64,000 bases of DNA from Escherichia coli (GTDB lineage: Bacteria; Pseudomonadota; Gammaproteobacteria; Enterobacterales; Enterobacteriaceae), in NCBI RefSeq assembly GCF_048403405.1, contig NZ_CP183129.1. One strand, 5' to 3'. Each line of letters starts with the position of its first letter. Position 1 is the stretch's first letter. Of this stretch, positions 6,001 to 15,000 are shown piece by piece. The position numbers were made by a program.

Positions 6001-9000
6001 ACGCGCCACGTTATCACGCCAGCTTTGCGCGCTCCCTGAGACGGTATATCCGGCTGCGGCTGAGCTTCTCCCGCTGAACAGCACAGGATTTTCAGGTGTT
6101 CCGATGATTTCCCCATCAGGCATGATGTACGCTCCGCATTGCCAGCCAGTGGCATGAGCAACACGCCACAATTCACGAGAGCCACTGCGTTGTAGCCAGT
6201 CTGCCAGTATTGCTCTGAGGCTGCTTTTGGTCGTGACATTTACCCCACCAGCTTTAAGTGTGCGCCATCCTTCACGTTCACCAATATCAGCCAGTGGAAT
6301 GGCAGCGGTTGTCGGCGTTTCAGAACCAAACGACAGCCAGCGAAGAATGAGATACTGGTCTTTATCGTCTCTGCCAGTACCGATAACGCTTAACGGAGAA
6401 CATAACCAGCTTTCGTTATTGATGATTTCTCCACTCTGGCTGTCAGCTCTCGGAGATACCCAATAAATACCATCCTCGCGGCTTTCTATTCTTGGTTTCA
6501 GTGGGTCGGTATCCATAACCTTAAAATCGCTTCCCTCAATGGTCTGTGGCTCCTGTTTCACGCCATTACCCTGTGGTTGGTACATTGACTTATTGAACGC
6601 TTCTGTGGCGCATTTAATGCCGTGTTTTTGGTGGTAATCATTCCAGTCTGCTTTGTGACCTGTCGGGGGTAATGCCACCCATCCAGAAACAGATAAAGCT
6701 GCTTTTTCTGCTGCTATTCTCCCCGTGTTTTGTCTTCCTTCGCTGTGGTCGTTATCCGCAGCAATGATGATTTGTGCTGAAGGAAATTTATCCCGCAGTA
6801 CCTGGGCGACATATAACAGGTTCCCGGCATCAATCGCCGCCACTGTCAGCGCCTCTGGACGAATTAAATGGGCAGATAATGCCGTTGCTAGCCCTTCTGC
6901 GATTAAGATGCTCTGTGTTGTTTCTGGTGCGTTTATGGCGTGATATGCCCCCCGCTTTGCTGAACCTGTCAGGAGTCTTTTTTCACCATGTGAGGTAATA
7001 GTCTGTGCTGCTGTGACTGCGCCGGATTTATCCACCAGCGCCAGCAACAGAGATCCATCGGGCAACACGGGGAATGTAAAATCACCTACCCCTTTCGCAA
7101 CCAGATAATCAGATTTGCCGTTTACAGCCTTTCTGCGCATGTCATCAAACTGACGGGAAAACGTATCCCGTCTTTGTTGTTCGTCCTTCTCCGCCCTTTT
7201 CAGGCGCTCCTGTTCGCGTTGCTGGCGCTCGGTTTCCAGTTGTTCCCGTTTCTGGCTGGTGGCTTCTGGTGTTTCCGTTGTCCGGTAATCAATACCCAGA
7301 ACATCAGCGGCAAGCAGCGCCGCCTCTGTTGTGTCGCAGTTATTTACGCGTTTAATTAAATCCAGCCCATCACCAGCGCCGCACTGATTACAGATGAAGC
7401 TACCGCGCCCGTTGTCATCGAACCGGAATCGATCTTTGCCCCCACATGCAGGGCAGGGAGCATGACGGCGCGGAGAGTCAGGGACATTTATGTTCAGGCA
7501 GCCCAGCACATGAGGCCAGTTGTTTTCAGACGCACTGATAACCTGACGGATAAGATCAATGTTTCGCATCACCGTACCCCACGTGGTCTATAGCGTTTGC
7601 GATATGGCTAACCAGCATCTGCCACTTGGTTATTCCGTAATCAGTCAGCATGCCATCATTGTTTAGCCACATATCAAATTCAGCGGTTGTCGCAAGTTTC
7701 CACTTATCGCCGTGGACAGTCCTCATTGCTGGGTACATGAATGCGCAAATCAGATCACAAACATCTGACGGCTTCAGAGATGTAGTAATAGTGCGTCCCT
7801 CTGGCGTCTGAATTGCCATTTTCTCTTCACCAGTAGAATGAAGGTTATGAATCCACACAGCACCAGCAATCTTTGCCACCTGCTCTCCGATTGCGGAGCT
7901 AAGCGCCATTTCTGCATTTTCACGCATGAGAACCTCCCGCTACAGTTGCGCCCATGTCATTAACCATGCTTTGCCATATCTCACGCCCGACGTCAGTCAA
8001 TCTGTCCTTAGTGACGCAACGATCAAGAAGCTCGATCCCCACGGTTTCCCACTGCGGGTAGAACACTTTCATGGCTGCCAGTGCGTAACTATCGATCAGG
8101 CTGCGAACGCCTTTTACTCCATTGACGATTTCCACACGTACGGCCTCTCCGTCCGCATCAATCATGAAATAGTCCCCGCCGCTGGTGGAGGTAATGTGGT
8201 TATACAGTGCTGACGCATACTTATTTGCCAGCGCATTCAGTCGGAAATTTTTAGTAATCATGGTTCCATCCTCAGTGCGTCACTGGTTCCGATGGCATGC
8301 CGTTTTCATTCAGTTCAGCTATAAAGCTGTTGTGAAGTTCAGCAAGCGTTTCACGACCAAATGGAGTCAGTGCTCCTTGTTCCACATCCATCATGGCTCT
8401 GTAGAAAATGATGGAGCGTTCTGTGCCAGACTCGATGCCAAAACGTTCTATCATCGCGCCCTCAATGTTGTTTGCCATAGCGAGGCGCTCTGCTACTGGA
8501 TACAGCGGCATGGCGACGATGCCGTTGGAATAAACAGCCACTTCGGAAGGATTGCCAGTATCATCAATGATGCTGACAGTGCCGTTTTCCTCTCTCATTT
8601 CCAGCATGAATACTGTTGCGATCAACCATCTCCACATAATGACGTTATGCTGTGATGTGTAATCGAAATATCCCTGGTTGCCGCCATCGGCAATAGCGAG
8701 ATGTATTGACATACCTTCATCTGGTTTATCGTCATAATCCCCGGCATCCAGACGATTTACGGCATCAATATATGAGACGGTCTCAACGCGTTCTGTCATG
8801 CCATCGTTGCTGCGGTGCATGATGTTTACGCCGTCAGGCGTTGCTTCTGCCTGGAAAGTTAAGAAATTATTCATGTTTCGCCTCGCCTGAATGATTCTGT
8901 AACTCATATTTGCCCAACAATTCGTCTGCTTCCTGAATAGCTTCTGGTACGCCATTGAGCAGTGACATAACCGCGCCAATCATTAACTTGTCTCTGTTGC

Positions 9001-12000: not shown

Positions 12001-15000
12001 AATATCTGAATTAGCCGCCTGTAATGGGCGGTTTTTCTTTTCCATCAGGCCACCTTCCCGCGGCGTTCTGCCAGCCAGTTGTGAATCTCAACCGCATCAA
12101 ACGCAGTTATTTTTTCTCCCAGCTTTACCGGACGTGGTAGTGAACCGTTTCTTACTTTACGGTCGATGGTGGATACACTAACGCCCAGCAATTCAGCCAG
12201 GCGGAAGCGTCTGATATAGCCTTTTGTAGGAATAGTGTCGGTGTTCATGCTTCCCGTAACCTCTTAGCGATAGTTGTTGCTTCGTTACGGGAGGAAGTAT
12301 CTGTACATATATGAACAATAAAAAGGCACAGTAATGATACTGTGCCTGAATAGTTAGCTACTCTACCCCTTACCGTTGGCGGCAGCACGTAAGTGTCTCA
12401 AAATCACATCTTCATTTGTGATTGCTAACGGTGGAATTTCGTCTTTATGAGCCACTATGCAATCCCGCCACTTCTCAGGGCTTATTTCTTTCTTTTTGCC
12501 ACGGCATTCATCAGGATACTTTGACAAAAGATATATTGCAGATTTGAAAAGTTTTTCCCTGTTTTCAGCATGTCTCTCGGCATTATGGTTGCTATTTTTT
12601 ATTTCAGGTATTAGTTCCTGTTCTACCGCCATTTCGTATCGTTTTTTGCTCTTAGCTGCGTCAAAACTTCCATTAACCTTTGCGTCATGAAGGTATTCTA
12701 AATCAGCCTTTGTTATATAAATGTTTTTATCTGACAGGCTACTCAGGTGAATTTGGGAACTTTGCATTTTGAATTTATATAGATCACAATCAAATGTTGC
12801 TTCAAGTCGCACATATGGTTCTCCACATTCTTGTGAATGATAATGTCGTGTTGTTCTACCGCGTACACGCAACAATCCACATGCAATTGATTTTCTTACA
12901 ATAAAAGAGTTTTTGCCAATTTGTTCAAAAACATTTTTATTGTCGCTGTCTTCAACTGTCAGTGGTTTATGTGCATAAAATAGCTCATAAGCACCGCTTT
13001 CAGATGCTGGGATATAAACTTCGTTGCTTGCGCTGGTAATAAGAAAAGGAAATGTAAACCTTACTTCTTCTGGGTACATAAGTAATAAATCAGTTATAAA
13101 ATTAGCATCTTTTTTGAAGTGGATGGTGGCATCAGATTCAATGAAATCAAGAAAGTCAGCATAGACATAAAAGTCTATATGTAGTCTATCTTTCCAATGC
13201 CATATATCATCAATTTCACAATTTAATAATTTTGATGCTCGCTCTATCGTGCAGTAGTCCAAAGGTGGAATACCTGATTCCTGCCATAAATTTCTATGCA
13301 CCACTGTTGTTTCATGAGAGTCGTTCATTGCGTCACCTTTTACGCTGCGCCTTATTTTGTGATTGAGCCAGGCGGTAAGGCTTCCCGCTTTTCGCCCCGT
13401 CGAGCTAGGCTCAATCTATTCAGTTAGTTCGCCCTTCTGAGAGGCGTTACGTTGTAGTCTTTTCCGCTTTCCAGTGCCACCAGCAGATCAGCCCACTGTG
13501 CCAGTGCTGCTTTACGCTCATCAAAATACTGATGGCGGTTATAAATCCCCTCTACGCCCTTAATGCGATGATTGAGGCATCGTTCCGCCACGACAGGATC
13601 AACACCCAACGCTGCTAAATGAGTACGTGCGGTGCGTCGGAAGTCGTGAATCGTGAAATTAGGCACATCCGGCATTTCGGCGCGAACCTTAGCCAGTGCT
13701 ACGGGCAAAGTGCTTTCCTGAATATGTGGGATCATTCTGTTTTGCATCTTCCTGGCTGGAAGCACCCATGCGCTATTACATGAAAAGGTGTGTAGCTCTC
13801 TCAACCATTCAACGGCTGGGGAAGGTAGAGGTATATCAATAGGGTCTCCGTTTTTGCTGCGTTCTTCCGGCAAATGCCATACCGCACCATCTAAATCAAA
13901 CTCTTCCCATCGTGCGGCGCATAACTCCATCTTACGAACGCATAGTGCCAGCAATAGCTTAAATGTCAGTTCGTTCTGGCGGCTGAATCCTTTTGCGGTG
14001 CGCATAGCCTCGAATAGCCTGATAAGCTCATCGCGAGTTAGCCAACGGTCGCGGGAAACCTCTTTACCACCAGCATCAGATACTTCAAACGCTGAACAAG
14101 GGTTTATCTCCAGAGCGTGGCGTTTTATCCCGTAGTCAAAGATACGGCGTGTCCAGCGTAATACATCTGTTGCTATCGTTGGTGCTCCTCGGTCAACGAT
14201 ACCTTTCAACATGTCGTCAATGTGGCGTGGCTTAACGTCCTCTACCTTCATATGCCCAATGCAGGGGTTAATATCCTTATCAATTCTCCGGCGAAGGATA
14301 TCGGGATGTTTCCATCTCGGAAGTATCTGGCGCTCGAAGTATTCGGAGGCCAGATCTGAAACACGCATGGCGTTTTTCTCAGCCTCCATTTTTGCCAGTG
14401 CTTCAGCTTTTCGTTCCTGTTTCTCTGCTGCTACGTCATAGCCAAGAGCAACTCTGGCTGACAGCTCTTTTGCTGTTTCTCTGGCTTTTGATAGTGACAG
14501 TTCGGAGTAAGAGCCTATAACCATAGCCCGCTGCTTTCCTGCGAGCTTATAGCGGAATCGCCAGAACGGGGCTGTGTAGTTTTTGGGGTAGCAAATATAA
14601 AGGCCGTTGCCGTCTGCCTTGCCATCAAATCTGTCTCCCGCCTTTATCCATGCGCGGATCTGCATATCTGTGAGTTTTGGCATTGCGAATACCTGAATAT
14701 CGAATATGGGTGTGTACATAAAGCAATGTACATGAAAGTCATTATGTACACCTCTATGTACACGCATATTGTGCGCTTTATTGCGTCGTTATGATAGCTC
14801 ATGATAACAAAAAAGCCCGACATTTCGCGGGCTTTGTGGTTTTTTGCTGCTTGGTGATTTTTACTGATAGCTTATTCGATATTCTGGATCTGCTCGCGCA
14901 TCTGCTCAATCAACACTTTCAGCTCGATGGCAGAATTCGTCACTTCGGCATTGATAGATTTCGACGCAAGAGTGTTCGACTCGCGGTTGAACTCCTGCAT

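Follow-up and report, generated by a model that had tools for sequence, protein, structure and literature searches.

The minus-strand gene chain that runs from alpA to the primase in the DNA analysed here is probably the AlpA-headed regulatory and replication operon of an EcCIMP1-like phage-inducible chromosomal island (PICI), laid out like the left operon of P4 and working in two modes. The chain lies in a stretch of 64,000 nucleotides (nt) of Escherichia coli contig NZ_CP183129.1 (assembly GCF_048403405.1), the whole of which we call the window. Several features are observed directly: overlapping genes, structured RNAs, complementary boxes that covary, a conserved bridging open reading frame (ORF), and homology to P4 Eta and Kil and to EcCIMP1. 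By analogy we infer promoter activity, termination, RNA processing, translational escape from immunity and any role for the small proteins. The element is a further member of a known satellite kind, EcCIMP1-like with P4-style immunity.

A predicted RNA immunity module lies inside the gene chain

Positions 9940-10230, between the start and the end of the chain, hold two structured RNAs together with a terminator and a promoter-like site, all of which the original prediction on this DNA had overlooked (Table 1). The upstream RNA is an isrK-type leader, equivalent to P4 seqA and to a1/b1 of P1, and the terminator closes it. The second is a C4 antisense RNA, equivalent to P4 CI. Behind it lies a target region, equivalent to P4 seqC and to a2/b2 of P1, whose box b2 overlaps the Shine-Dalgarno (SD) motif of icd, the P4 kil homologue and the first gene after the immunity RNA. 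Run on P4 itself, the same Rfam models recovered the CI RNA (C4 model, 74.9 bits) and the seqA leader (isrK model, 60.8 bits). Both models have been reported to detect CI/seqA relatives in Gram-negative PICIs (Mageeney et al. 2023, PMC10111431).

The C4 loop box b' and junction box a' each have exact complements at two sites, one inside the leader upstream and one in the downstream target. When the RNA from leader to icd was folded (z = -5.6), a1/b1 paired with a'/b'. A pattern scan of IMG/VR returned 72 distinct C4 loci, of which 66 had complete flanks and 56 different loops. Among these 66, complementarity of at least 7 nt was found between a loop and its own flanks in 70-94%, and between a loop and the flanks of other loci in 2-7%. 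For the downstream target the shares were 82-86% of own pairs and 3-5% of cross-locus pairs.

Covariation was measured in an alignment of 12 enteric loci and P4 (13 sequences), counting the C4 helices plus either a'-a2 and b'-b2 or, alternatively, a1-a' and b1-b'. All 42 pairs showed standard base pairing in all 13 sequences. Changes on both sides were seen in 23 pairs, a number reached by none of 500 shuffles, and sliding the partner columns by 1-3 positions lowered pairing to 29-49%. The internal helices of C4 were 100% paired across the 13 loci, with 11 compensatory pairs. Pairing of a'-a2 and b'-b2 was likewise complete (13/13 loci; compensatory changes in 12 of 15 pairs), as was that of a1/b1 with the C4 boxes (13/13 loci; again 12 of 15). 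Judged by its sequence, the module is the P4 immunity design of seqA, CI RNA, seqC and eta/kil.

Just upstream of the leader, the promoter-like site has the same geometry as a P4 site (TTGCCT, 18 nt, TATAGT, 6 nt, leader) that we take to be PLE. Its -10 region is conserved in the 12 enteric loci, and it may act as an internal promoter.

The match of the leader to Rfam isrK opens another reading, modelled on Gifsy-1, in which the leader RNA would act in trans to open the ribosome-binding site of the first ORF on a read-through mRNA, switching on the distal genes and serving mainly as an induction trigger. Some read-through of the isrK terminator occurs in Gifsy-1, where the RNA governs translation further downstream; supplying IsrK in trans increased that translation about 140-fold in Salmonella, and the C4-like STnc1160 arises from the same transcript by processing (PMC4825925). 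In the window, leader boxes a1 and b1 could titrate C4. However, both the bridging eta-like ORF and the order of genes after C4 (kil/icd, then replication genes) are as in P4, in which the RNA is a repressor (PMC10111431), and this makes an IsrK-type activator unlikely here. The activator and repressor readings are not exclusive, as a leader that sequesters C4 would be an anti-repressor in the same circuit. The Gifsy-1 isrK/orf45/anrP locus shares with the window an isrK-family leader and a C4-like processed RNA in the following ORF, and translational coupling (AUGA) controls its downstream gene (PMC4825925). It differs in regulating an antirepressor gene of a lambdoid prophage, and in having neither an eta-like bridge from an alpA operon nor a primase.

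The ash family ORF bridges the structured RNAs

In the P4-like operon that we favour, the 355-amino-acid (aa) ORF named 'ash family protein' by PGAP corresponds to P4 eta as a bridge coupled to the gene upstream. Its ATG, preceded by a GGAGG motif, overlaps the stop of the DUF4222 gene (ATGA). From there the frame spans the promoter-like site, the leader, C4 and the targets, passes over icd in another frame and finally coincides with the frame of G7, a small gene nested at its 3' end. The product is 40% identical to P4 Eta over 120 aa (E = 5e-19). The P4 frame across CI and seqA is Eta; its ATG overlaps the stop codon of vis, and its last part is Kil. CI lies inside eta, which belongs to the Bro network (Mageeney et al. 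2023); coupling links eta to the alpA homologue, and translating eta keeps transcription from terminating (PMC10111431).

The same arrangement recurs elsewhere. Scored as a single frame without a stop over at least 220 nt before C4 and at least 240 nt after it, the bridge was intact in 15 of 17 enteric-type loci, each starting at an SD-preceded ATG that often forms an ATGA with the stop of the upstream gene. In the window, as in nine other loci, the bridging ORF passes through icd in a different frame and shares its end with G7; five loci have icd nested in frame with it, as in P4. One IMG/VR locus (L084) contains a single long open frame with two tandem C4 and icd-like modules.

The Pfam Phage_ASH match (PF10554, 105 bits) is limited to aa 124-232 of the ORF, or nt 10230-9904, and coincides exactly with the isrK and C4 RNA region. 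RNA constraints probably account for the conservation of this domain, and annotating genes as 'ash family' at the protein level may mislead. The N-terminal sequence is unalignable between lineages. Among close relatives, the first 123 codons diverge by 7-9%, compared with at most 1.5% in the flanks, with no indels and no third-position bias. Such a substitution pattern fits selection for translation through the region rather than for a particular protein. A plus-strand gene beneath the N-terminus, at which the pattern of substitutions also hinted, was rejected, as there is no plus-strand ORF in that frame.

Were the ORF instead a working Bro-network protein, for instance a DNA-binding protein or an antirepressor, selection would act on the protein and its overlap with the RNAs would be secondary. 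The size of the Phage_ASH score would suit such a protein, but the match covers precisely the two RNAs and leaves out an N-terminus that is unconserved between lineages and lacks third-position bias. The family is treated as a member of the Bro network (PMC10111431), and the ORF is open in most enteric loci, yet in many non-enteric C4 loci no frame is open across the RNA, and the C-terminal part is an alternative icd frame in some loci and the icd frame itself in others. Moreover, PGAP annotates the icd-like gene in other strains and then labels ash a pseudogene (MP1, W4). We consider a working Ash protein improbable, slightly more so than the IsrK-type activator. The 'ash family protein' is chiefly a read-through ORF over two regulatory RNAs.

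Signatures of coupling extend along the whole chain

Every gene from alpA (12248) to the primase start (7569) is encoded on the minus strand, and neighbours overlap by 1, 4, 8 or 14 nt at 10 of the 12 junctions from alpA through the primase. All starts are ATG with a GGAGG, GGAG, GAGG or GGGG motif 8-12 nt upstream, and predicted anti-SD duplex energies range from -6 to -11 kcal/mol. A translationally coupled operon is marked by stop/start overlaps in which the SD falls within the preceding gene, and the sequence of the chain bears these marks. Because the ash/eta-like ORF bridges the RNA region, an unbroken reading path exists from alpA to the primase. Since the P4 left operon also shows 8-nt overlaps, the pattern is ordinary for operons of this type rather than exceptional.

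The original prediction had described near-continuous overlaps of 1, 4 or 8 nt with SD motifs inside upstream genes, and this description was accurate, with an SD at every start. Its further claim, that the module reads as one coupled transcript, divides in two: tight coupling is borne out by the overlaps, the SD motifs and the bridging ORF, whereas a single uniform transcript is at odds with the promoter-like site, terminator and C4 RNA within the chain. A plain polycistronic early operon of the kind first envisaged, with one promoter upstream of alpA, expression through coupling alone and RNAs of no regulatory role, would account for the continuous overlaps, the SD motifs and the continuous ORF path across the gap bridged by ash, but is very improbable in view of Rfam matches well over their gathering scores, a terminator inside the chain, and compensatory changes in the four target boxes and C4 helices (13 loci; 66-locus cross test) that need selection on RNA pairing.

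A two-mode circuit is proposed for silence and switch-on

With the P4-like operon as the preferred reading, the module suggests the following circuit. In the prophage state, a weak constitutive promoter within the ash ORF (about 10225-10254) would transcribe the isrK-type leader, and most transcripts would end at the intrinsic terminator of the leader. Those that read through would give C4 RNA, whose a'/b' boxes would pair with a2/b2 covering the icd ribosome-binding site and block icd translation. This pairing would also trigger premature termination, as in P4 and P1, leaving the distal small genes and the primase silent. The same C4 boxes could also pair with a1/b1 of the leader.

In the induced state, a helper phage would induce transcription from upstream of alpA, and ribosomes would be coupled through alpA, G2, the AntA gene and the DUF4222 gene into the ash/eta-like ORF. 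Translation over the leader, terminator, C4 and targets would prevent the RNA structures from forming, so that the transcript would escape immunity and reach icd, G7-G13 and the primase. The distal half of the operon, including the primase, is expected to be gated because of the internal promoter-like site, the terminator and the C4 target over the icd ribosome-binding site. Antisense RNA gating is thereby predicted for the replication half of the operon, and the proposal offers a concrete, testable circuit for how EcCIMP1-type satellites are kept silent and switched on.

Several points weigh against this interpretation. Its support is sequence evidence. The promoter-like site matches 8 of 12 consensus positions and falls under the scan threshold. 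The alpA gene and integrase of the window differ from those of EcCIMP1, so that induction by a helper is an extrapolation. P4 kil is in frame with eta, whereas the icd of the window uses a different frame from the ash ORF, which makes the analogy inexact, and the codon-position data on the ash N-terminus are few and come from related loci. In addition, a perfect TATAAT on the minus strand (10094-10099), between the isrK terminator and C4, could be part of a separate C4 promoter, which would alter details of the prophage mode; it is conserved in 10 of the 12 aligned enteric loci and absent in P4.

The operon departs from P4 and P1/P7 in defined ways

The window shares with the P4 left operon the order of an AlpA-type gene, a bridging ORF coupled upstream, a leader with boxes and a terminator, C4/CI, a Kil/Icd-like gene with a target over its ribosome-binding site, a set of overlapping small genes and a primase. 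Namely, a structured RNA of the C4/CI family lies on the operon strand in both. Target copies occur upstream (seqA/a1b1) and downstream (seqC/a2b2), the latter over the ribosome-binding site of the first gene, and an eta-like ORF starts upstream of an internal promoter-like site, is coupled and spans the RNA region. In contrast to P4, where kil is nested in frame at the 3' end of eta, the window has G7 in that place. It also carries three extra genes (G2, AntA and DUF4222) between alpA and the bridging ORF, which itself has a 126-aa N-terminal extension. The a'/b' specificity differs, and epsilon, orf151 and orf106 have no relatives among the distal small proteins. Nor is the element a P4-like satellite in the strict sense, as it has no match to sid, delta, psu or epsilon. 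Its late region has P22-type ejection-protein genes.

The immI region of P1 and P7 (c4, icd, ant) encodes a C4 RNA with a'/b' boxes, a1/b1 and a2/b2 targets, icd as its first gene, and a specificity switch through compensatory changes. The window shares the a'/b' boxes of C4, the two target sets, an icd-like first gene and switching of specificity by compensatory changes. The order c4-icd-ant is not kept, as the AntA gene of the window (10768-11601) lies upstream of the RNA module, and icd is followed by G7-G13 and the primase, not by an antirepressor.

A satellite of the EcCIMP1 kind carries an apparently exchanged specificity cassette

That the element is a satellite, as originally predicted, is supported by its close relation to EcCIMP1 of E. 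coli MP1: window positions 2758-12055 (9.3 kb) are 97.5% identical to it at the nucleotide level, and the proteins from G2 through DUF2824 are 96-100% identical. The shared backbone comprises the antirepressor, Ash, the small genes, the primase, ejection-protein late genes and PerC, the late and PerC-family genes having been read in a strain with a 100% identical sequence. The region studied here is 100% identical to E. coli O111:H8 7-54 11A, and related DNA was found in 1,477 of 5,426 complete genomes.

EcCIMP1 is a PICI that is excised and transduced only upon induction of the P22-like helper Kapi1. Excision and transfer depend on its alpA gene, which the helper induces and which also regulates itself (Pick et al. 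2025, PMC11773190). The window element differs at its integration end. The two integrases are 29% identical, and the alpA genes are different, with no alpA match at a threshold of 1e-5. The window element adjoins yicC, not tRNA-Thr/proA, and has a 321-aa low-GC gene between int and alpA that EcCIMP1 lacks.

Specificity differs as well. EcCIMP1 has b' CCTTGTAC and a' CTGCGAA, with matching a1, b1, a2 and b2, whereas the window has b' CCATTCGA and a' ACGCCAA; a further, otherwise near-identical locus (L049) has b' CCTTCAGA. From these sequences, the divergent block resembles an exchanged specificity cassette of the kind that distinguishes P1 from P7. Immunity specificity would in that case be exchanged as a cassette between otherwise identical satellites.

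Neither the RNAs nor icd are mentioned in the EcCIMP1 paper (PMC11773190). EcCIMP1 was reported to give superinfection immunity to its P22-like helper, which was left unexplained, and no known defence system was found. It is possible, though on balance doubtful, both that interchangeable RNA immunity cassettes let heteroimmune satellites coexist or compete in one host and that one or more of the G2 and G7-G13 proteins give EcCIMP1 its superinfection immunity to the helper. At the level of annotation, the analysis corrects a widespread E. coli island in which pipelines often miss or merge icd/kil and G7.

Genes of the operon

The view that no product but the antirepressor is recognisable was too strong. 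DUF4222, Phage_ASH and Icd-like (NF033153) were all matched by profiles (Table 1), and the icd product is 46% identical to P4 Kil (E = 7e-11). Substitutions in icd are biased towards third codon positions (5/1/19 and 7/5/21). The alpA product is 34% identical to P4 Vis/orf88 (E = 9e-8), and the primase-helicase is 33% identical to P4 alpha over 359 aa (E = 8e-41). Of the searches proposed alongside that view, those with profiles succeeded for those three families and found no informative family for G2 and G7-G13; those with structure models covered G2 and G13.

Of the other comparisons proposed, those with psu, sid and delta gave no similarity for any chain protein by BLASTP, and the same held for P4 epsilon, orf151, orf106, cII, gop and beta. 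Among the P4 proteins, BLASTP of all chain proteins matched only int, vis and alpha, and Pfam and PHROG likewise gave no match to P4 hijacking genes among the chain proteins. Roles of the small proteins in helper interference or derepression are speculation; the uncharacterised ones form a candidate pool for satellite-helper interaction.

G2 had no match in Pfam, PHROG or NCBIfam, and its 608 homologues in Enterobacterales include none with a name. Its AlphaFold2 (AF2) model (predicted local distance difference test score, pLDDT, 87) has three helices followed by a beta-hairpin. The top Foldseek matches were MarR-type regulators and the replication terminator protein, all weak (E 0.01-0.2; template-modelling score 0.33-0.43), and with the model they suggest, with moderate strength, a DNA-binding role. 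Sequence searches of the PDB with G2, G11 and G12 matched nothing.

G7-like ORFs occupy the same position in six loci, with 39-53% identity, and G7 itself had no family match in Pfam, PHROG or NCBIfam. The G13 model (pLDDT 88) consists of a helix, a beta-hairpin, a long helix and a further helix, for which Foldseek found no fold match in the PDB. A ubiquitin-like nature of G13, raised by phmmer matches to poly-ubiquitin with E values down to 4e-15, was rejected as an artefact: these matches amount to about 7 bits per ubiquitin unit, the model is not a beta-grasp and ubiquitin is not among the Foldseek matches.

PADLOC matched no chain product above noise, with weak or candidate matches only, to PDC-S22 (AntA C-terminus), PDC-S31 (321-aa protein, E = 0.002) and CARF (G8, E = 0.005). 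The first of these covers the C-terminal half of the AntA protein (aa 165-266; E = 8e-11), PDC-S22 being a candidate defence family.

Table 1. Genes, RNAs and sequence elements of the alpA-to-primase operon, in order of transcription
Feature	Position	Strand	Junction with next gene	Evidence or remark
alpA, AlpA/Vis-type regulator, 67 aa, first chain gene	12045..12248	-	overlap 1 nt	Pfam Phage_AlpA 34 bits
G2, 143 aa	11614..12045	-	gap 12 nt	basic disordered N-terminus, then predicted winged-helix domain
AntA/AntB-family antirepressor-like protein, 277 aa	10768..11601	-	overlap 8 nt	Pfam AntA 76 bits
DUF4222 protein, 59 aa	10596..10775	-	overlap 4 nt (ATGA, with ash ORF)	Pfam DUF4222 87 bits
'ash family' ORF, 355 aa, P4 eta analogue	9532..10599	-		PGAP name 'ash family protein'
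Promoter-like site	10225..10254	-		sequence reading; TTGCCG (10254-10249), 18 nt, TATGGT (10230-10225), 6 nt to leader start 10218
isrK-type leader RNA	10141..10218	-		Rfam isrK 67.1 bits (gathering score 50)
Box a1 TTGGCGT	10187-10193	-		in leader
Box b1 TCGAATGG	10170-10177	-		in leader
Intrinsic terminator	10147-10161	-		terminator scan; GC hairpin stem and T-run at leader end
C4 antisense RNA	9991..10078	-		Rfam C4 79.5 bits (gathering score 45)
C4 loop box b' CCATTCGA	10027-10034	-		
C4 junction box a' ACGCCAA	10013-10019	-		
Downstream target	9945..9986	-		
Box a2 TTGGCGT	9980-9986	-		in downstream target
Box b2 TCGAATGGA	9947-9955	-		overlaps icd SD GGAGG (9945-9949)
icd-like gene, 64 aa	9743..9937	-	overlap 8 nt	NCBIfam NF033153 71 bits
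G7, 72 aa	9532..9750	-	overlap 8 nt	own SD GGAGG; nested in frame at ash ORF 3' end
G8, 64 aa	9345..9539	-	overlap 4 nt	TY-Chap1 match below threshold (16.7 bits, cut-off 27)
G9, 87 aa	9085..9348	-	overlap 4 nt	47-60% identity in related loci; no family match
G10, 73 aa	8867..9088	-	overlap 8 nt	phrog_20558 (unknown function), E 3e-9
G11, 200 aa	8272..8874	-	gap 10 nt	phrog_1515 (unknown function), E 1e-47
G12, 113 aa	7920..8261	-	overlap 8 nt	phrog_37628 (unknown function), E 3e-50
G13, 123 aa	7556..7927	-	overlap 14 nt (with primase start)	narrow Enterobacterales family, 21 clusters
Primase-helicase, 918 aa, distal operon end	4813..7569	-		Pfam Zn_Ribbon_Prim, Toprim_3, DUF927

Neighbouring features

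Upstream of the operon, a terminator-like hairpin (12324-12347) lies between alpA and the 3' end of the preceding 321-aa ORF (12363-13328, minus strand). This ORF, with a GC content of about 39-41%, sits between int and alpA; it had no family match besides the weak one to PADLOC PDC-S31 given above and looks like cargo. Between it and the integrase is an Rfam int-alpA RNA (RF02996, 60.6 bits; 13349-13415, minus strand).

Directly downstream of the primase, a spacer of 40% GC holds six copies of GTTGGTTCA(A/G) at 4675-4789, three direct and three inverted, which are candidate origin iterons. The late region beyond (window 1-4228; locus L001, 20021-26216) encodes DUF2824, a 'phage DNA ejection protein' and a 906-aa lytic-transglycosylase protein, which are P22-type ejection proteins. 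No capsid or terminase genes were found in the late region of the island, through which the left edge of the window cuts. Unrelated to the island, a JUMPstart RNA element (24197-24235, plus strand; 55 bits) lies in the chromosomal waa region.

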